A DNA stretch of 63,659 nucleotides, the filler included, from NCBI GenBank assembly GCA_964501035.1. It is 3 parts of 3 records of this genome, joined end to end, with 100 filler letters (N's around TTAATTAATTAA, not from the genome) between each part and the next. Parts side by side here need not be neighbours in the genome. Positions count along the whole stretch, not along the records: positions 1 to 22,532 come from CAZCRK010000019.1; 2 more parts are not named here. The stretch is one strand, 5' to 3'. The translations under genes were made by a program, and so were the position numbers. This document shows positions 1 through 45,081 of this stretch, piece by piece. Below the pieces are notes generated by a model. It had not been told where the DNA came from. It saw only the letters and a list, made by a program, of their open reading frames with translations, and searched no databases. Positions within the stretch are counted from its first letter, which is position 1, and each line of letters begins with the position of its first letter.

Positions 1-244
1 GGGGGATGTTTCGGGTTAAAACCCAAGCCAACAACCCATTCATGCCTTGTTTTTTCATCATTTTAATGCATAGTTTTTGCATTTTTTCAGCAGTATCTGC
101 TTCATCTGCCATCATAAACTCACCATCTTTGTAACAGTATGAGCAATATAGTTTGGATTTTGCCCCATCTTTTTCGGAACCGCCAAGTTCAGGGTTTTTA
201 GCAATTGGTATTCTACAACTTTGGCAAAATTTATTAGGTTTCAT
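1..244 (-). CDS. Zinc-ribbon domain protein (Zn_ribbon_2-like), 3' end outside window; second gene cassette
   Basis: Not in the ORF track. Manual translation from ATG at 244: MKPNKFCQSCRIPIAKNPELGGSEKDGAKSKLYCSYCYKDGEF..., with CxxC...YCxxCY motifs. Starts 17 nt after the GTTAAAC core site. Confidence 0.8.
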   Translation of the reverse strand, partial: MKPNKFCQSCRIPIAKNPELGGSEKDGAKSKLYCSYCYKDGEFMMADEADTAEKMQKLCIKMMKKQGMNGLLAWVLTRNIP

Positions 245-261
245 GTTATTTTCTTTCTGAT

Positions 262-363
262 GTTTAACGTTCGCGGATATGAGAAGTTGCTGAAGCGAGG
301 TACGAGCGTAGGCAATTTGGGTGTAGTGAGCCTGCGAACGAAACCTCATATCCGCTGTTGTGC
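262..363 (-). mobile_element. attC-like integron cassette recombination site (102 bp)
   Basis: Minus strand reads GCACAAC (R'', 363-357) ... GTTAAAC (R', GTTRRRY, 268-262). Perfect 11-bp inverted repeat GCGGATATGAG (273-283) / CTCATATCCGC (345-355). Lies between two co-oriented genes. Confidence 0.75.
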
Positions 364-455
364 ATAGTACTTTGTGGGCGGTCTTTTTTTTCATGGGCAT
401 TTGTTTTTACTTTTTAATACTTTGCTCTTTTAACCGTAACCCACGATGGGTGAAG
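357..455. repeat. Left arm of segmented inverted repeat bounding the oxidoreductase cassette
   Basis: Boxes GTTGTGC (357-363), TACTTTGTGGGC (368-379), CATGGGCAT (392-400), AATACTTTGCT (416-426) and CCACGATGGGTGAAG (441-455) are reverse complements of boxes at 1461-1554. Confidence 0.85.
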
Positions 456-474
456 GTTACTATTAGTCCCTGTT

Positions 475-1427
475 TCAATCCCTTTTTATTTTTATAATTA
501 TTTTTCCATTAAACCCACCGTTCTCAAGTAATTGAAAAGCATCTCCAGCTTGTTCTAATGAATAAGTTTTATAAATTACGGGCTTCAATTTATTTTCAAT
601 CATAAGAGATTCCAATTCCTTAAAGTCATTAATCCTACCTCTAAAACTTGATAGATACATAGAAGAATGTGGATTAATTTTACTCATTATAGTGTGTATG
701 GCAGGTTTAATTCCTTCTTCTGTGGTACAATAAATACCAGATTTATTAAGGTTCTTTTTAATTTGGGTATAAGTAAGTTTCGCAGCTGCATCATATATTA
801 TATCATAATGCATATCCTTGCCAAATTTATCTTCTTGATTGTAATCTATTACTTTTTTAGCACCTAATTTCTCTGCAAGGGGTATATTTTTGAACTGCAA
901 ACGGCTGTTACTATTCCTCCTTTTGCAACTGCAATTTGTGTAGCTAAATGTCCAATTCCGCCGGTTGCGCCATTAATAAGTATTTCTTTATTATTTAAAT
1001 TCCCACATTTTTGCAATCCATTTATTCCAGTTAGGCTAGCTGAGACGACAGCACAAGCGTTGATCGGATCGATCCCTTCTGGTAATTGTCTAACATATTT
1101 AGGAGTAATCGCTGTATATTCTGCCAAGGTGCCTTGTTCTCTGAAAAATATATTTGCAAAGCCATATACCAACTGGCCATTTTTGAAGGCATTATTCTTA
1201 TCTTGAGAAGCAATTACTTTCCCAACAAAGTCTCCACCAAACACTTTAGGGAAATTCTTTCCAGTCATCCATTTTGCTATCCCATTTCTTAATTTATAAT
1301 CATAAGGATTTAATGACGCATATTCTATTTCGATTAGAATTTTGCCTTTAGAAATTGATGGTTTTTCAATTTCTTTTAAGGTCATCTTTTCAAGACTACC
1401 GTATTCCGTTGCAACCCAAGCTTTCAT
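475..1427 (-). pseudogene. MDR-family NAD(P)-dependent oxidoreductase (quinone reductase/alcohol dehydrogenase-like), frameshifted near 887-891
   Basis: ORFs 864..1427 (ASLNPYDYK, GGDFVG, LINGATGGIG) and 475..900 (LGAKKVIDY ... GKIII) are the two halves of one MDR protein. Adding one A to an A5 run restores AVCSSKNIPLAEKLGA. May be a sequencing error. Confidence 0.8.
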
Positions 1428-1460
1428 ATTTTTTGTTCTTCTTGTTTGATTCTATATTTA

Positions 1461-1554
1461 CTTAACACATCATGGATGGTGTGTTTTTAGCAAAGTATTT
1501 ATTCTTTTCTTATGCCCATGCATTCATCTTAGCCCACAAAGTATTTCGCACAAC
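1461..1554. repeat. Right arm of segmented inverted repeat bounding the oxidoreductase cassette
   Basis: CTTAACACATCATGG (1461-1475), AGCAAAGTATT (1489-1499), ATGCCCATG (1512-1520), GCCCACAAAGTA (1532-1543), GCACAAC (1548-1554). Confidence 0.85.
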
Positions 1555-1598
1555 ATCTTGATAAACACCATTGCGTTTATTGGGTTATATTTGGGTTA
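1548..1598 (-). mobile_element. attI-like (or degenerate attC) site at the head of the cassette array
   Basis: Minus strand ...TAACCCAA-ata-TAACCCAA-TAAAC-gcaatggt-GTTTATcaagat-GTTGTGC. The GTT core is the exact complement of the cassette's R'' GCACAAC. Has an ATAAAC/GTTTAT inverted pair and two 8-bp direct repeats. Confidence 0.5.
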
Positions 1599-1602
1599 AA
1601 AT

Positions 1603-1923
1603 TTATTCTTCATCTTCTTCAATGACAATTGTTTTGACAATTGCACGTATTTCTTGACCACTTTCAGTCTGAATTGTATCCAATGAAACATCCACATTTA
1701 CATGTTCATCATCACTAAATACAAATGCTTCAACATTGCCATCCAATGCATGTGTACCACATTTACTAGAGCCATGAAACCCACCATGATGTGATTTACA
1801 TTCTCGATGACATCCACCTCCATGAGAGCATGTTAGCATTTTAATTCCAAATGCGACTACTAACAATGTGAGTGCTGTATAAAATGCGCCCTTTGCGTAT
1901 GTTAAAAATTGTTCTGAGTTCAT
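1603..1923 (-). CDS. Hypothetical membrane-anchored His/Cys-rich protein
   Basis: N-terminal hydrophobic helix followed by CSHGGGCHRECKSHHGGFHGSSKCGTH. Confidence 0.65.
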   Translation of the reverse strand: MNSEQFLTYAKGAFYTALTLLVVAFGIKMLTCSHGGGCHRECKSHHGGFHGSSKCGTHALDGNVEAFVFSDDEHVNVDVSLDTIQTESGQEIRAIVKTIVIEEDEE

Positions 1924-2085
1924 GTTTTCCTTTCAGTTTAAGTTTTTTTACAATTTGAATTATTCAAAGTATTCACTTCATTAAATATAAAATGAAATCA
2001 ATATGTATTCAAACCATATAAGACTTTCAACAATCGTGCATCAAACTTCTTTTTTCACCTCATGGTTTGGTGCTAATTTTACTTT

Positions 2086-2346
2086 ATGGATGAGAGAATT
2101 ATAAAATTACGAGAAGAAATTGATGCGATTGATAGTAAAATTATACGTTTACTGAAAGATCGGATGGCAATTTCTAAAAATGTAGGTAAGCTAAAAGAAG
2201 CACTCCATATTCCTGTGGAAGATAAAACCCGTGAGGAAGAAATTATCCATCGACTGACCCAACATGCAGGCAGAAATTTATCCGAGGAACAATTGATTCG
2301 TATTTTTACTGCGGTCTTTAAATCTTCAAAGCAAATCCAAAAATAA
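2086..2346 (+). CDS. Monofunctional chorismate mutase (AroQ/CM_2 type)
   Basis: LREEIDAIDSKIIRLLKDRM...VGKLK...VEDKTREEEI motif; 86 aa. Confidence 0.9.
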   Translation: MDERIIKLREEIDAIDSKIIRLLKDRMAISKNVGKLKEALHIPVEDKTREEEIIHRLTQHAGRNLSEEQLIRIFTAVFKSSKQIQK

Positions 2347-3245
2347 TGTCAGGCCATCATCACCATCATTCTCACACACAACGACATCTTTTGTGGTGGG
2401 CATTTTGGATAAATTTTGTATTTCTCATTATTGAATTTATTGGTGGCATTATTACCAATAGTCTCGCATTATTATCGGATGCTGGGCATATGCTCACAGA
2501 CGTAGGCGCCCTCGGAATTGCCATAATTGTTTCCGTTTTGGCTGAAAAACCTCGCACCAAATTTCGTTCGTATGGGTATATGAAAGCAGAAATATTTGGA
2601 GCGTTTATAAATGGCGCCACACTTGTTATTATTTGTGGTTTCATTTTATATGAAGCATATAAACGCTTTGGCATTATGCAGGAGATAGATGGACCAACCA
2701 TGCTTTTTATTGCTATCGCAGGTCTTTTTGCCAATGCAGTCAGTGCTAAAATATTATCGGGTTCACATCAACATGATATCAATATTAAAGGCGCATATTT
2801 ACATTTAATTTTTGATGCATTGGGTTCGGTTGGCGCTATTATTTCTGCCATTGCAATATGGGGGTGGGGATGGTACCCTGCAGATATTATTGCAAGCATT
2901 GTGATTGTTGTTTTTATCTTGTATGGCACACGGAAATTATTGTTTCAAAGTGTCAATATTCTCATGGATGCTGTACCAGAAAACATAAATTTTCAAGAAG
3001 TGAAAGAGTCTATGCTTTCGTTAGATCATGTTTTAGATATACATGACTTACATATTTGGTCTATTTCACAAAATGAAATTGCACTTAGTGCACACATTAC
3101 TTTGGTACCAGAATGTACCGATAATAAACATTGGAGTGAATGCTTAACTCACACGCAAACATTGTTAAAAGAACAATTTAATATTACTCATTCAACCCTT
3201 CAAATGGAACCAAAAAATCATGTTGAGGATAGAAATTGTAAATAA
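2346..3245 (+). CDS. Cation diffusion facilitator (CzcD/ZitB-like Zn/Co/Cd transporter)
   Basis: His-rich N-terminus, SLALLSDAGHMLTD, AYLHLIFDALGS, IHDLHIW, HSTLQME. Confidence 0.92.
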   Translation: MSGHHHHHSHTQRHLLWWAFWINFVFLIIEFIGGIITNSLALLSDAGHMLTDVGALGIAIIVSVLAEKPRTKFRSYGYMKAEIFGAFINGATLVIICGFILYEAYKRFGIMQEIDGPTMLFIAIAGLFANAVSAKILSGSHQHDINIKGAYLHLIFDALGSVGAIISAIAIWGWGWYPADIIASIVIVVFILYGTRKLLFQSVNILMDAVPENINFQEVKESMLSLDHVLDIHDLHIWSISQNEIALSAHITLVPECTDNKHWSECLTHTQTLLKEQFNITHSTLQMEPKNHVEDRNCK

Positions 3246-3250
3246 AAAAC

Positions 3251-3280
3251 TTGTATTTTCAAAATATGCTGATGTAATAT
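3251..3280 (+). promoter_or_regulatory. Putative sigma70 promoter of the aromatic operon
   Basis: TTGTAT (3251-3256), 18-nt spacer, TAATAT (3275-3280), just upstream of the leader ATG at 3290. Confidence 0.5.
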
Positions 3281-3289
3281 TGGGGCGAG

Positions 3290-3364
3290 ATGGAAGGATT
3301 AAACTCAATAACGGTAAGCGGATTTTGGTGGTATTTTCAAAAGGGGTTGGAACAACAACCTTAG
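3290..3364 (+). CDS. trpL: Attenuator leader peptide MEGLNSITVSGFWWYFQKGLEQQP (24 aa)
   Basis: Short ORF directly upstream of trpE with consecutive TTT TGG TGG TAT TTT codons (3323-3337). Confidence 0.85.
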   Translation: MEGLNSITVSGFWWYFQKGLEQQP

Positions 3365-3420
3365 GAAATACGCACCCTAAACTGTTCTAACCCTGCAATA
3401 TAATTGTGGGGTTTTTTTTT
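3343..3420 (+). terminator. Attenuator: antiterminator and overlapping intrinsic terminator
   Basis: Terminator stem AACCCTGCAAT (3389-3399) / ATTGTGGGGTT (3403-3413) followed by a T-run to 3420. GGGGTTGGAAC (3343-3353) can alternatively pair with GTTCTAACCCT (3384-3394). Confidence 0.85.
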
Positions 3421-3430
3421 GATAAAAACG

Positions 3431-4900
3431 ATGAATATGACATTTGAACAATTTGAAAATTTAGCGAAAACGCATTCAACAATTCCCGTTTATACACGGG
3501 TTTTGGCAGATATGCTTACACCGGTTTCTACCTATATGCGATTTCAAAAAGACTCCAATTATGCATTTATTTTAGAGTCTGTTGAAAAAGGTGAACAATA
3601 TGCTCGCTATTCTTTTATTGGTCGAAATCCGGATGTCGTTCTTCGTTCGGATAAAGGTCAAACTATCATTGAAAAAAATAGCAGTACTTCAACAACTGAT
3701 ACAGATTATTTAACGCTCCTTCGAGAATACCAATCACGATTTAATGCACCTCAAATTACAGGGTTACCTACTTTTACGGGAGGACTTGTAGGATGCTTAG
3801 GGTATGAAAGTATTGTATGGGTGGAGGATATTCCAACGTATGAAGACAATATTTTAGACACCCCGGATGCTGTTTTTATGTTATATAATAATTTGATTGC
3901 CTTTGATCATTTGAAAAATGAGGCAATTTTATTTAGCAATGTGCATATATGTGAAACAACTGATTTAAAACAGGCATATCATGAAGCTATACGCCAAATT
4001 GATTTAATGGGTGAACTTCTTCATACTGATATTGATTATCAAACTCCAATTCGAGTTGAAAAGTCATCCTTGAAATCCAATTTTACGAAGGATAAATTTA
4101 TGTCATCCGTGCAAAAAGCACAGGAATATATAAAATCTGGAGATGTGTTTCAACTGGTATTAAGTCAACGGTTCCATCGCCATACCCCCGTGGATGCAAT
4201 TACGTTGTATCGAGCATTACGCACCATCAACCCATCGCCTTACATGTTTCATTTGAAACTCAATGGAATCGATGTGATTGGAGCTTCGCCTGAATTATTA
4301 GTTAAAGTGCAAAACCGTGAGGTTGAAATTCGCCCCATTGCAGGTACTCGACAGCGAGGGCAGAATGCAAAAGAAGATGCACAATTAGCTCAAGAATTAT
4401 TAAACGATACTAAGGAACGAGCGGAACATTTAATGCTTGTAGATTTGGGACGAAATGATGTGGGAAGGTGTACAGAATATGAATCTGTAAAGGTAAAAGA
4501 TTTCATGATAGTTGAAAATTATTCACACGTGATGCATATTGTGTCAGATGTTCGGGGAACGTTAATGAAAGATAAGGATAATTTTGATGCGTTATATTCT
4601 GGATTTCCAGCTGGCACATTAACAGGCGCACCCAAAATTAGAGCTATGGAAATTATACACGAACTAGAGCCAGATAGGCGTGGTATTTACTCAGGTGCAA
4701 TTGGATATTTTGATTTTGCAGGCAATATGAATACGTGCATAGCTATTAGAACACTTGTTTTAAAAGATAATATTGCATATTTTCAATCAGGGGCAGGTAT
4801 TGTATTTGATTCTAACCCCGAGTTAGAGTATGAAGAAACATTGAATAAAGCAAAAGCAATAAACTCAGCAATAGACTTAGCTGAAAATGGATTAATATGA
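3431..4900 (+). CDS. trpE: Anthranilate synthase component I
   Basis: LESVE, YSFIG, GDVFQLVLSQRF, NPSPYM, PIAGTR, EHLMLVDLGRND, GAPKIRAM. Start moved to the ATG downstream of the terminator. Confidence 0.96.
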   Translation: MNMTFEQFENLAKTHSTIPVYTRVLADMLTPVSTYMRFQKDSNYAFILESVEKGEQYARYSFIGRNPDVVLRSDKGQTIIEKNSSTSTTDTDYLTLLREYQSRFNAPQITGLPTFTGGLVGCLGYESIVWVEDIPTYEDNILDTPDAVFMLYNNLIAFDHLKNEAILFSNVHICETTDLKQAYHEAIRQIDLMGELLHTDIDYQTPIRVEKSSLKSNFTKDKFMSSVQKAQEYIKSGDVFQLVLSQRFHRHTPVDAITLYRALRTINPSPYMFHLKLNGIDVIGASPELLVKVQNREVEIRPIAGTRQRGQNAKEDAQLAQELLNDTKERAEHLMLVDLGRNDVGRCTEYESVKVKDFMIVENYSHVMHIVSDVRGTLMKDKDNFDALYSGFPAGTLTGAPKIRAMEIIHELEPDRRGIYSGAIGYFDFAGNMNTCIAIRTLVLKDNIAYFQSGAGIVFDSNPELEYEETLNKAKAINSAIDLAENGLI

Positions 4901-5484
4901 ATTTGATAATTGATAATTATGACTCATTTACGTATAATTTAGTACAATATATTGGTGCAATTGATCCCACGTTAGAAGTGCATAGAAACGACAAAATTAC
5001 AATTGAAGAAATTACTGCAATGTCGCCAGATAAAATCATCATTTCACCTGGGCCTGGGGTTCCAGAAAATGCCGGGATTTCTATTGATATCATTCAAACT
5101 TTTGGCAAGACTATACCGATATTTGGAATTTGTTTAGGACATCAAGCAATAACCGTTGCCTTCGGTGGAAATGTTGTACGGGCAAATGAAATTGTCCATG
5201 GAAAAACTTCAAAAGTATCGCATACCGATTCACATATTTTTCATGATATTCCACCGACATTTGAAGCTACACGGTATCACTCTTTAGTTGCCGAAGAGTC
5301 AACATTTCCTAATGAGTTACGGATTACTGCACGAACAAAAAACAATTTAATCATGGCTTTAGAGCATAAAAAGTATCCAATTTTTGGAGTACAGTTTCAT
5401 CCAGAATCAATTGTAACTGAATTTGGAATGAAAATGGTAGAAAATTTTATAAAAGGGACTCCACCTAGAAATGAATCAAGGTAA
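4897..5484 (+). CDS. trpG: Anthranilate synthase component II (glutamine amidotransferase)
   Basis: IDNYDSFTYNL, SPGPG, GICLGHQ, RYHSL, QFHPES. Confidence 0.95.
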   Translation: MNLIIDNYDSFTYNLVQYIGAIDPTLEVHRNDKITIEEITAMSPDKIIISPGPGVPENAGISIDIIQTFGKTIPIFGICLGHQAITVAFGGNVVRANEIVHGKTSKVSHTDSHIFHDIPPTFEATRYHSLVAEESTFPNELRITARTKNNLIMALEHKKYPIFGVQFHPESIVTEFGMKMVENFIKGTPPRNESR

Positions 5485-5487
5485 AAT

Positions 5488-6486
5488 ATGAAACAAATTA
5501 TTGAAAAATTATTGGGAAACCAAGCCTTATCACAAGATGAAGCTCGAGATGTTATGGAAAAAATTATGTCAGGTGAATTTGATGATGCCCAAATTTCTGG
5601 ATTTCTAATTGCTCTTAGAGCTAAAGGAGAAAATTCTTCAGAAATTGCTGGATTTGCTCAAGCAATGCGAGATAAAATGACGCCAATCCCGATTACATCT
5701 GAAGCAATTGATATGTGCGGCACTGGTGGTGATGCAAGTGGGACATTTAATATTTCAACTGCTGCATCGTTTGTTGTTGCTGGTGCAGGAGTCAAAGTCG
5801 CAAAACATGGTAATAGGTCCATGACCTCTAAATCTGGGTCAGCAGATGTACTATCTGCATTAGGTGTAGATATTACCATGAAGCCAGAAAAAGTTGCTCA
5901 TTGTATCGAAGAAATTGGACTGGGATTTATGTTTGCACCTTCTTTACATCCAGCAATGAAACATGCAATCGGTGCTCGAAAATCGCTTGCTGTACGAACG
6001 GTATTCAATATATTGGGTCCGCTTTGTAATCCTGCAGGAGTTAATCGGCAGGTAATTGGTGTATTTGATGGTTCCATTACAGATAGAATGGCGAAAGTCC
6101 TCAAATTATTGGGTTCAAAAGAGGCTTATGTTGTTCATGGCTATGATGGCTTAGATGAAATCAGCAATACTGCGTCGACGAAAATGAGTCATTTAGTGAA
6201 TGGCACGATTGAATCCACAGTCATTTCCCCTTCAGATGTTGGGTATAAAACTGCTTCGATGGATGAATTAGCAGGTGGAATGCCAGATGAAAATGCAAAA
6301 ATTATTGAATCTGTTTTACAAGGTGAAACGGGTGCACGAAGGGATATTGTTGTGTTAAATGCTGCTGCTGGAATAAAAGTTGGTCAAAAAGTATCAACAT
6401 TTAAGGATGGAATTTTATTGGCTGAAAAGTCTATTGATTCAGGAAAAGCAATGAAGGTGCTTCAAAATCTACAAAACATAAAATGA
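5488..6486 (+). CDS. trpD: Anthranilate phosphoribosyltransferase
   Basis: DMCGTGGD, FNISTA, KHGNRS, GSADVL, RTVFNILGPL. Confidence 0.96.
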   Translation: MKQIIEKLLGNQALSQDEARDVMEKIMSGEFDDAQISGFLIALRAKGENSSEIAGFAQAMRDKMTPIPITSEAIDMCGTGGDASGTFNISTAASFVVAGAGVKVAKHGNRSMTSKSGSADVLSALGVDITMKPEKVAHCIEEIGLGFMFAPSLHPAMKHAIGARKSLAVRTVFNILGPLCNPAGVNRQVIGVFDGSITDRMAKVLKLLGSKEAYVVHGYDGLDEISNTASTKMSHLVNGTIESTVISPSDVGYKTASMDELAGGMPDENAKIIESVLQGETGARRDIVVLNAAAGIKVGQKVSTFKDGILLAEKSIDSGKAMKVLQNLQNIK

Positions 6487-22532: not shown

Positions 22533-22632
22533 NNNNNNNNNNNNNNNNNNNNNNNNNNNNNNNNNNNNNNNNNNNNTTAATTAATTAANNNNNNNNNNNN
22601 NNNNNNNNNNNNNNNNNNNNNNNNNNNNNNNN
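22533..22632. other. Artificial contig linker (N44-TTAATTAATTAA-N44)
   Basis: All-frame stop linker embedded in Ns. Confidence 0.95.
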
Positions 22633-44981: not shown

Positions 44982-45081
44982 NNNNNNNNNNNNNNNNNNN
45001 NNNNNNNNNNNNNNNNNNNNNNNNNTTAATTAATTAANNNNNNNNNNNNNNNNNNNNNNNNNNNNNNNNNNNNNNNNNNNN
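44982..45081. other. Artificial contig linker (N44-TTAATTAATTAA-N44)
   Basis: Same linker as at 22533. Confidence 0.95.

Follow-up and report, generated by a model that had tools for sequence, protein, structure and literature searches.

An integron-type gene cassette with cassette-specific complementary arms beyond its attC-like site

The first part of the analysed window (the whole stretch of DNA, 63,659 nt) holds an oxidoreductase gene between two non-coding arms, with an attC-like site at its 3' end and the relic of an attI-like site beyond its 5' end. The features, in positions of the whole window, are as follows.

2-244, minus strand: Zn_ribbon_2 gene (Pfam PF12674, 4.5e-17), the conserved left flank of a variable slot
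262-268, minus strand: R' core of the integrated attC-like site, read directly as GTTAAAC on the minus strand
~268-1553, minus strand: integron-type cassette, one unit with the oxidoreductase gene
268-363, minus strand: attC-like recombination site, assigned from its fold and homologous sites; R'' GCACAAC is the reverse complement of 357-363
364-460: 3' (left) arm with boxes at 368-379, 392-400, 416-426 and 441-455, T-rich spacers and a local hairpin at 431-459
475-1427, minus strand: MDR/zinc-type alcohol dehydrogenase-like oxidoreductase gene (Pfam ADH_N and ADH_zinc_N_2, on two frames)
1461-1547: 5' (right) arm with boxes at 1461-1475, 1489-1499, 1512-1520 and 1532-1543, T-rich spacers and a local hairpin at 1464-1485
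1548-1554, minus strand: junction core, GCACAAC on the plus strand and GTTGTGC on the minus strand
1555-1594, plus strand: attI-like site relic, a 10-8-10 palindrome (CTTGATAAAC-ACCATTGC-GTTTATTGGG) with similar sites in genomes G026, G001 and G027
1603-1923, minus strand: 106-aa Cys/His-rich open reading frame (from the ORF list), kept in G001, the conserved right flank of the slot

The slot is variable. Window positions 3-255 are 80% identical to a contig of G001, a genome of the same genus (G001:C12), and the window from 1595 onwards is homologous to that contig too; G001 keeps the flanks and has a TdeIII restriction-modification pair where the cassette sits. To the right of the site, the 40-nt attI-like relic is followed by the conserved 106-aa gene, which matched no Pfam family, and then by chorismate mutase/trp genes. 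One contig of metagenome run X3 stops exactly at 1554, and one variant X3 contig departs from the window after 263. The oxidoreductase gene is frameshifted in this assembly at a T run near 886; an extra T follows 886 in contigs of runs X3 and X7 and is absent in run X2. Its nearest homologue, in genome G102, is intact (316 aa, 66% identical) and has unremarkable surroundings: it follows a MarR-like gene and has neither arms nor hairpin. An Rfam scan of positions 1-3000 (E ≤ 10) gave only four weak chance matches, none of them in arms or hairpins.

attC is a textbook recombination site that is recognised by shape. As in integron attC, the window site is bounded by RYYYAAC (R'') and GTTRRRY (R') cores that are complementary in the excised form: R'' reads GCACAAC on the minus strand, and R' reads GTTAAAC when integrated and G+TTGTGC in the circle, where it pairs perfectly with R'', GTTGTGC deviating from RRR at one base. 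By analogy with integrons, crossover would fall between the G and the TT of this core, between 268 and 267. An L''/L' helix of 11 bp (273-283/345-355), an unpaired central spacer and a variable terminal structure are likewise present. The spacer between R and L is asymmetric, with A opposite GAAC, and the terminal part of 61 nt forms two inner hairpins with the motif AAGTTG...CAATTTGGG. Unlike that of integron attC, the L stem has no extrahelical bases on the bottom strand: every base of it pairs, both in the window and in the consensus of the family. Conserved unpaired bases occur at two places only in the family, in the spacer from R to L and in a 2x2 mismatch on the outer side of R. Homologous sites end the first cassette of an array in another genome of the class (G018) or lie in phage contigs, and their consensus structure has 29 pairs, 13 with compensatory changes. 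This attC type has a 9-bp R helix, then the conserved two-base mismatch and then a helix private to the cassette. The reading of the unit as an integron-type cassette, made in the preliminary description, is borne out by the homology of its hairpin to the G018 and phage sites and by a right border that falls directly after RYYYAAC. The L-box pattern of the type occurs in 2/307 genomes of the class, those of the window and G018. A 16-mer search with two mismatches returned about as many matches as a reversed control; the sole match with one mismatch lay in apparent coding DNA. A relaxed site pattern gave mostly coding-DNA noise on the genome itself and was set aside.

The non-coding DNA on both sides of the oxidoreductase gene carries the five inverted boxes proposed earlier, all at the expected places and in the same order.

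Box 1 (R core), GTTGTGC: 357-363 and 1548-1554, exact, 7/7
Box 2, TACTTTGTGGGC: 368-379 and 1532-1543, exact, 12 nt
Box 3, CATGGGCAT: 392-400 and 1512-1520, exact, 9 nt
Box 4, AATACTTTGCT: 416-426 and 1489-1499, exact, 11 nt
Box 5: 441-455 and 1461-1475, 12/15 matching

The offsets of the boxes between the two ends drift by merely 0, 0, -1, -4 and -5 nt. Collinear exact inverted matches outside the 7-bp core total 32 nt (12+9+11), a sum reached by 0/20,000 shuffles (shuffle maximum 12) and by 1/60,000 inverted pairs of 103-nt pieces lying 1.2 kb apart in the same genome. Local alignment of 125-nt pieces scored 50 versus 17.6±3.1 after shuffling (0/2,000), a score reached by 4/3,000 genome pairs. 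Against this, gapped local alignment of 260-nt arms without their first 12 nt gave 34 versus 29.3±4.7 (z 1.0), so the signal of the arms resides in collinear exact blocks, not in overall similarity. The matches are clustered: 62/101 columns are identical, and 95/100,000 permutations reach the combined length of the four longest runs. The spacers are T-rich on the plus strand at both ends (T 27/45 and 25/40), as first described, far above the composition of the genome flank (upstream A 0.37, T 0.34); they show no complementarity whatsoever, and the two ends share this strand bias. TACTTTG is present in box 2 and in box 4, and the boxes otherwise differ. The window arms do not vary among contigs of four metagenome runs; since they are also unique, boxes 3-5 offer no covariation test of their own.

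The right border of the cassette coincides exactly with the junction, after RYYYAAC, of a conserved attI-like site: bases 1548-1553 are the first six of the cassette (its TTGTGC start), and base 1554 is part of the attI-like site. Such a site lies directly upstream of a gene for a 278-aa IntI-like recombinase (P0001 family) in 17 fetched loci, and the border between variable and conserved DNA is at ...YAAC in these 17 recombinase-linked sites as in the window. The recombinase is carried by 27/307 genomes of the class, and 14/28 copies of its gene lie <700 nt from a contig end on the array side. P0001 scores 204 bits against TIGR02249, in two stretches and under the cut-off of 265, and its alignment to VchIntIA (2a3v) skips chain residues 211-243, which we take to be the I2 helix; the P0001-family recombinase of the relatives lacks the integron-integrase-specific segment. 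At the window relic (1555-1594), the recombinase gene and its leader are absent, no integron integrase stands next to the cassette as part of an adjacent divergent platform, and the genome has no P0001-family match at E ≤ 1e-30. An IntI N-terminal fragment is found on another contig of this genome (C31:4-570, 237 bits), where it runs off the contig. A recombinase profile search of genome contigs yielded only relatives of ≤55% identity, and these were rejected as belonging to other systems, many being Bacteroidota genes that have an extended N terminus and lack an upstream site, others archaeal or class-1-type integrases. On the favoured reading, the window cassette was inserted next to an attI-like site that is now orphaned, and the slot it occupies contains other genes in relatives.

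Long inverted repeats round a passenger gene also recall MITE- or IMU-type elements. The ends read 5'-TGT...ACA-3' and the repeats are subterminally segmented, which would suit a non-autonomous transposon (MITE-like with cargo, or with Tn7/Tn402-like ends) that has the arms as terminal inverted repeats. We consider such an origin highly improbable. The flanks (CCGC/T... and ...A/TCTTG, the stroke marking the border) show no direct repeat, and the ends match the core sites of two recombination-type hairpins, the terminal seven bases being the commonest core of this cassette family. Nor is there a second copy of the arms: a blastn-short comparison with the 167 contigs of the genome gave the self match and matches of ≤19 nt only, the arm pattern with two mismatches had two matches in 74 genomes of the order, both within thioredoxin-like genes, a viral scan gave none, and boxes 2 and 3 together had two matches in a metagenome scan, inside coding DNA of GC-rich contigs. 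Repeats in blocks with non-complementary spacers further separate the unit from MITE and IMU elements, and there is no repeated transposase-binding repeat as in Tn7/Tn402-like ends. No DDE transposase gene was found within the 1.2-kb unit. The earlier suggestion of a nested non-autonomous element is therefore not upheld, and neither is a MITE.

The preliminary description had also asked whether the same arms surround unrelated genes. The exact arms occur nowhere else in the sequences searched, and it is the architecture that recurs, so the refuting case of arms confined to one gene family does not apply in spirit: cassettes with this attC type have analogous cassette-specific extensions, of other sequence, that flank unrelated genes. 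The first cassette of the G018 array, which carries a GmrSD_N gene, has different boxes of 17, 12, 12 and 8 nt in the same layout. Among 13 cassettes with the same attC type, nine show an exact second helix of their own, 9-13 nt long, immediately past the R box, compared with 0/156 mismatched pairs in which the left end of one cassette is set against the right end of another; the remaining 4/13, and about half of a wider phage set, lack the second helix. In the wider set, which comprises 36 automatically delimited cassettes, exact boxes of at least 9 nt occur in 12/36 versus 4/1,260 mismatched pairs, boxes of at least 8 nt in 19/36 and two or more boxes in 5/36. The phage contigs are uncultured IMG/VR fragments, and the phage sets overlap, with loci L221, L239 and L254 coming from one viral contig. 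A phage array segment had no blastn match in 50,697 phage records. In the same kind of array, 15/15 cassettes with other attC types have no extension past a terminal repeat of 9-14 bp, so the recombination system does not need one.

Exact boxes in conserved order with free spacers had been taken as possible protein-binding sites. The TACTTTG shared by boxes 2 and 4 would also suit this use, and symmetric sites for a recombination accessory factor, a transposase or a regulator could have this appearance. The two-base mismatch beside the R box, whose sequence is conserved across cassettes, could indeed be a protein contact. Past R, however, the boxes are private to each cassette and share no motif between cassettes, as the mismatched pairs of both sets attest, and those of the window had no further occurrence in the genome, in the 74 genomes examined from the order or in scans of metagenome and viral sequences; we regard this use of the boxes as distinctly improbable.

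The arms might instead be a functionless by-product of history, the decaying remnant of a long palindromic ORF-less cassette or of an inverted duplication that received a gene. Arm length does differ widely among cassettes, from 0 to 5 boxes; the G018 left arm holds a 55-nt insertion; leader modules are reused, the 5' leader of G018 cassette 1 being homologous to the leaders of two other cassettes; and the frameshifted oxidoreductase gene also fits. A search of 74 genomes for the leader motif of G018 and G003 returned only the three copies already known. Neutral decay of a palindrome, however, would give neither the non-complementary spacers nor their common strand bias, and it sits poorly with identity clustered in exact blocks and with boxes that are unrelated between cassettes and complementary within each. 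On balance, a by-product appears rather improbable.

Joined as a simulated circle, the two cassette ends fold into the attC-like hairpin, the R box and boxes 2-4, so that the arms continue the R''/R' stem as had been predicted. The predicted interrupted stem of about 280 nt stands for boxes 2-4 only; box 5 forms local hairpins without cross-pairing, and the span is about 225-235 nt. The junction reaches -54.7 (top strand) and -61.6 kcal/mol (bottom strand), as against -28.9±3.2 and -33.3±3.1 with shuffled arms (0/100 shuffles reach the native value on either strand), and the integrated state has -27.7 and -31.0 kcal/mol. For G018 the values are -73.8 (bottom) and -63.7 (top), against -46.6±4.3 with shuffled arms (0/40). 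A cassette's own 5' end stabilises the junction over a foreign 5' end in 20/24 cases, by 8.6 kcal/mol on average. These energy gains follow by construction from the complementarity. The bottom strand is the stabler one in 55/72 sites and in 22/24 simulated junctions, and genes are mostly on the opposite strand (75.4 kb versus 34.5 kb of ORFs; 29/36 loci). Transition mismatches in the R box favour neither strand, roughly three fitting the bottom strand and six the top. Neither a joint nor a circle junction, for which junction reads had been proposed as a check, is present in the covered parts of contigs of four DNA runs.

Strand preference bears on whether the pairing acts in RNA, where the untranslated 5' and 3' ends of the cassette transcript would pair and could close the mRNA, mask the translation start or form a processing stalk in a read-through transcript, like those of rRNA operons or phage RNase III sites. 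The arms coincide exactly with what is non-coding at the 5' and 3' ends of the gene, and on the sense strand their spacers have a strong excess of A (~60% T on the plus strand) relative to a genome A of 0.35-0.37. Phage cassettes have box 2 immediately 5' of a Shine-Dalgarno-like AGGAG, and some of their second boxes overlie the start codon; a Shine-Dalgarno-like motif with a start codon within 65 nt occurs in 24/60 sites. Yet the window and G018 both fold less stably on the sense strand, which is favoured in only 2/24 junctions; the invariant G-T wobbles of the site family sit on the plus (non-coding) strand and would be C-A mismatches in mRNA. A scan of positions 200-1700 found no sigma-70-like promoter or terminator in the arms. 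Action in RNA is therefore unlikely, though its chance is appreciable.

The anatomy of the site recurs in other cassettes, its complementarity is cassette-specific and the bottom strand is the one that folds better; together these findings suggest that the arms are selected as a clamp of single-strand DNA, lengthening the folded site once the cassette is excised, a function to which we give about an even chance. The cassette would consist of the oxidoreductase gene with its own attC-like hairpin at the 3' end and the six-base TTGTGC at the 5' end. On excision as a circle, or when the bottom strand is single-stranded, the R''/R' helix would be extended outward from the base of the attC hairpin by three helices of 12, 9 and 11 bp with T-rich internal loops between them. 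Cleavage takes place at the base of the folded site, which such a clamp could keep in register where the DNA is AT-rich; this might favour re-insertion of the excised cassette. The window arms would then be an exaggerated form of a trait typical of this attC type.

Much of this resembles integron cassettes such as those with class 1 attC sites or Vibrio VCRs: one gene with a 3' imperfect palindrome, RYYYAAC/GTTRRRY cores, a platform junction at ...AAC, a site that varies in sequence and is conserved in structure, a bottom strand that folds better, and cassettes all directed away from a divergently transcribed tyrosine recombinase gene. To our knowledge, all known attC determinants lie inside the R-L hairpin. 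Unlike integron attC, the sites described here have complementarity past R, with an R helix of typically 9 bp, the conserved 2x2 mismatch and one to several cassette-specific helices; the R box of integrons is given as 7 bp in the available part of one account (PMC5371416). Also unlike integrons, the linked recombinase lacks the integron-specific segment and the window cassette has no integrase beside it. The phage arrays are like the CALINs of virulent phages, as far as these are described in the available part of Qi et al. 2023 (PMC9892861), in having same-strand arrays of small genes with attC-type hairpins between them and no recombinase in the available part of the phage DNA; that part of the paper gives no account of complementarity between cassette ends beyond R'/R''. 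PF00589 was not detected in two phage records, which are 23% and 54% complete. The phage-array site type is common to bacterial arrays.

In the PeSL cassettes of T4-type phages, according to the available parts of two reports (PMC2839356, PMC4122927), small accessory genes of hyperplastic regions are flanked by conserved intergenic stem-loops, to which modular shuffling is attributed, the promoter-plus-terminator motifs acting via homologous recombination. Unlike PeSLs as portrayed there, the window arms have neither promoter-like spacing nor a T-run terminator, and the sites, with their integron-type cores, have a tyrosine recombinase linked to them in bacteria. Within the limited library and terms of our literature search, we found no description of cassette-end complementarity beyond the R box.

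A broader and more tentative reading, possible but with less than even chances, is that a separate cassette system, running alongside classical integrons, is common to uncultured phages and marine bacteria of this class. In its hairpins, a three-way core (AAGTTG...CAATTTGGG) and an R helix of 9 bp would be joined by a fourth conserved unpaired element, the 2x2 mismatch on the outer side of R, and by at least one cassette-private clamp helix, and the bacterial version would be served by the short IntI-like recombinase without the integron-specific segment. The clamp would place part of the site on both cassette ends, so that site quality would be inherited by the cassette, and the window cassette would be the most elaborate example known.

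A helix past the crossover with a cassette-private sequence would, if true, mean that the two ends of a cassette co-evolve and that folding of the excised form is under selection, with a bearing on cassette survival between excision and capture; site finders that end at the 7-bp core would miss part of the site. If the arms act in RNA instead, they would represent a new way to insulate a horizontally acquired gene. The finding connects arrays in bacteria with those in phages and with a short IntI-like recombinase, and makes testable both the exchange of cassettes between phages and AT-rich marine bacteria and the needs of a minimal cassette recombinase.

The oxidoreductase gene of the integron-type cassette at window ~268-1553 (minus strand) lies between two non-coding arms that share five inverted boxes, all found exactly as the preliminary description had claimed and numbered here outward from the GTTGTGC core.

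Inverted boxes at the two ends of the cassette (window positions).
357-363 (left) and 1548-1554 (right), inverted: box 1, GTTGTGC
368-379 (left) and 1532-1543 (right), inverted: box 2, TACTTTGTGGGC
392-400 (left) and 1512-1520 (right), inverted: box 3, CATGGGCAT
416-426 (left) and 1489-1499 (right), inverted: box 4, AATACTTTGCT
441-455 (left) and 1461-1475 (right), inverted: box 5, matching at 12 of 15 positions

Beyond the 7-bp core, three exact collinear matches total 32 nt, a sum reached in 0 of 20,000 shuffles (maximum 12) and equalled by 1 of 60,000 inverted pairs of genome pieces spaced 1.2 kb from each other. Local alignment of 125-nt arm pieces scores 50 versus 17.6 ± 3.1 when shuffled, with 4 of 3,000 genome pairs as high, and clustering of the boxes beyond an evenly spread 61% identity was matched in 95 of 100,000 permutations. 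Gapped alignment of 260-nt arms minus their first 12 nt is not significant (34 versus 29.3 ± 4.7), so the signal comes from exact blocks that keep register. Both ends have spacers rich in T on the + strand (27/45 and 25/40 T), as also described before, compared with near A 0.36 and T 0.34 in the gene flanks of this genome. Such arms might be a decaying palindrome or inverted duplication, a reading that the block pattern leaves rather improbable; the window itself offers a single instance, without variation.

The slot holding the cassette is variable. Window 1-255 (a Zn-ribbon gene; the contig begins at position 1) and the DNA from 1595 onward (a 106-aa gene, chorismate mutase, a CDF transporter and trpEGD) are collinear with C12, a contig of the congeneric genome G001, in which 2.37 kb encoding an N6_N4 methylase and a TdeIII endonuclease replaces window 256-1594. 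The G001 slot between the Zn-ribbon and 106-aa genes (L028, G001:C12:15200-18400) is tightly packed, and hairpin sites are not visible in it. The 106-aa ORF (1603-1923) is conserved in G001, has a hydrophobic N-terminus, is Cys/His-rich (CSHGGGCHRECKSHHGG...) and has no Pfam family. Right of the slot, window 2086-6486 is an ordinary chromosomal neighbourhood with ORFs for a chorismate mutase-like protein (86 aa), a His-rich cation-efflux-type membrane protein, trpE, trpG and trpD, named from translations except TrpD, which was named by family call. In the window, N runs (22533-22632, 44982-45081 and further) and TTAATTAATTAA linkers connect contigs C19 and C20 with pieces of C28, and only 1-22532 is contiguous with the cassette locus. 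Among metagenome contigs, a 92% identical variant (runs X3/X7) departs from the window after 263 into a different attC-like start, a small contig (X3/X7) carries only the 32-nt attI-like core (1554-1585) in foreign context, and both cassette borders coincide with breaks in X3 contigs (336-361 and 1536-1554).

The cargo is an ordinary gene (1427-475, minus) for an MDR/zinc-ADH-type oxidoreductase, split over two frames in this assembly. X3 and X7 contigs (two of the three metagenome runs covering the site) carry an additional T after 886 that brings the gene back into a single frame, and X2 contigs agree with the window at the T run near 886 (region 879-900); either strain variation or an assembly error accounts for the frameshift. 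The nearest homologue in the class (G102, 316 aa, 66% identical, downstream of a MarR-like gene) has neither arms nor hairpin, and the arms are therefore a property of the cassette rather than of the gene family.

At the right border, the 40 nt at 1555-1594 resemble short stretches in four relatives, mostly adjoining contig ends; in G027 the stretch lies ~75 nt upstream of P0001, a 278-aa IntI-like tyrosine recombinase. P0001-type recombinases occur in 27 of 307 genomes of the class (E ≤ 1e-70), and the contig ends within 700 nt upstream of 14 of 28 copies, the pattern to be expected where a variable array interrupts assembly. Loci with a conserved upstream hairpin site are found class-wide (L031-L036 and L168-L189; for example, L004 76-912). 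In 17 loci fetched with upstream DNA, the attI-like site is conserved up to a sharp border, right of which stands RTCYYGCTAAAC-N8-11-GTTTAGCGGG and then the leader, and left of which stands unrelated DNA always ending ...YAAC, most often GCACAAC. The window has this same border at 1554|1555 but of the attI-like site retains just the first 40 nt, and it has lost the recombinase gene. No integrase adjoins the cassette, and the genome yielded no P0001-type match at E ≤ 1e-30; the C6 end and C7:5341 (a decayed attI-like site copy) carry relics. At the C6 end, a ...CGAACGTTGGGC site comes after a truncated recombinase C-terminus and runs into the start of C80, beside a cytosine methylase-like gene. 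C31:4-570 encodes 207 N-terminal residues of a canonical integron integrase, cut off by the end of the contig (237 bits, model positions 1-189), and a P-type ATPase gene lies upstream.

On the left side of the attI-like sites, the genes face away from the recombinase, with 48-128-nt hairpins (YAAC-GGT..TATRNG...CAYATA..T-GTT) between them, as in integrons. The left hairpin of the window (268-363) is attC-like and clearly homologous to the site ending the first cassette of the G018 array (a GmrSD_N gene); its L-box pattern occurs in 2 of 307 genomes, those of the window and G018. Cassettes in G018 (L052) and G003 (L051), three in all and with different genes, have a common ~200-nt 5' leader (…AAGAGGGG…GTTTTCTCCGCT…CTTATATAATG), of which 74 genomes of the order hold only these three copies. 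The attC type of the window hairpin was also found in IMG/VR phage contigs, where small same-strand genes are separated by ACAACGTTTGC-hairpin-GCTGTTGTRC, and a stricter site pattern returned 49 viral loci. The consensus of seven long-type sites has 29 pairs, of which 13 show compensatory changes; the pairs form R and L helices plus, around AAGTTG...CAATTTGGG, two inner hairpins. Uncultured phage contigs (L221, 10.5 kb; L205; L222-L270) carry up to ~13 genes per array; two records checked contained no tyrosine recombinase, and blastn of the array among isolated phages gave no match. Arrays of attC sites without an integrase are known in virulent phages, and IntI1 recombines some of them (PMC9892861).

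The unit would work like an integron cassette, with which it shares cores, L helix, unpaired spacer and array logic; it differs in having no extrahelical bases and no integrase beside it. The linked recombinase does not pass as IntI, scoring below the TIGR02249 cut-off (204 versus 265 bits) and skipping residues 211-243 in alignment to VchIntIA. That the unit is instead a MITE-like transposon seems very remote beside these borders and sites.

Arm extensions recur with the attC type. Among 17 bacterial-array cassettes delimited at both ends, 15 have only a 9-14-bp terminal inverted repeat; the two with long block arms, the window and G018 cassette 1, are also the sole two with a GGATATGAG-type attC. 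G018 cassette 1 has boxes of 17, 12, 12 and 8 nt (local score 75 versus 30.1 ± 5.3) and spacers likewise T-rich on the non-coding strand. Phage cassettes carrying this type of attC have GTTGTRYGA at their ends. Next comes a dinucleotide that is conserved but does not pair (TG at one end, AA when the other is read as its reverse complement), and beyond it an exactly complementary box of 8-13 nt, different in every cassette. Protein-binding sites would be another explanation of the boxes, one that we consider improbable given such sequences. Complementary runs of at least 9 nt occur in 9 of 13 cassettes of this type (ten from one phage contig, one from another, the window and G018), versus 0 of 156 mismatched end pairs (maximum 8) and 0 of 15 cassettes with other attC types (maximum 6). 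In a wider, partly overlapping set delimited automatically from the 49 viral loci, runs of 9 nt or more occur in 12 of 36 cassettes versus 4 of 1,260 mismatched pairs, 19 have a box of at least 8 nt and 5 have two or more collinear boxes; these shares are lower bounds, because long 'cassettes' may span missed sites. Window box 2 (TACTTTGTGGGC after a 4-nt mismatch) is the family's second helix; boxes 3 and 4 add further helices such as a minority of cassettes have.

Folding was predicted for a simulated circle junction, in which 3' arm, site and 5' arm were joined in silico.

Predicted folding energies for the window cassette (kcal/mol).
Circle junction: top -54.7, bottom -61.6
Circle junction, arms shuffled: top -28.9 ± 3.2, bottom -33.3 ± 3.1
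Integrated state: top -27.7, bottom -31.0

None of 100 shuffles matched the observed junction on either strand. The proposal that the arms continue the attC hairpin held for the R box and boxes 2, 3 and 4; box 5 stays outside, in a local hairpin at each end. The G018 cassette 1 junction reaches -73.8 (bottom) and -63.7 (top) versus -46.6 ± 4.3 with arms shuffled. A cassette's own 5' end outperforms a foreign one in 20 of 24 cassettes (mean 8.6 kcal/mol), and in 55 of 72 sites and 22 of 24 junctions the bottom strand folds more stably. Pairing of 5' and 3' ends in RNA could also select for complementarity but is unlikely: two invariant G-T wobbles lie on the + strand and the genes mainly on the other, an assignment that fits integrons, where the bottom strand is recombined (PMC9892861), and that argues against mRNA as the folded molecule, although not decisively, because transition mismatches in R boxes favour neither strand.

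The R box is given as 7 bp in integron literature (PMC5371416), and the literature searched yielded no account of cassette ends that stay complementary past it. What the analysis shows is the anatomy of the arms, their recurrence, a complementarity private to each cassette and the strand preference; the crossover point, a circular excised form and an influence on recombination are inferences. The favoured reading, to which we give about even chances, is that the arms are under selection as an extension, in single-strand DNA, of the attC-like hairpin. The arms would then act as a clamp outside the helix where cleavage occurs, relevant only when both cassette ends lie on one strand beside the site, that is, in the excised form, and may help an AT-rich site to fold in register and be re-inserted.
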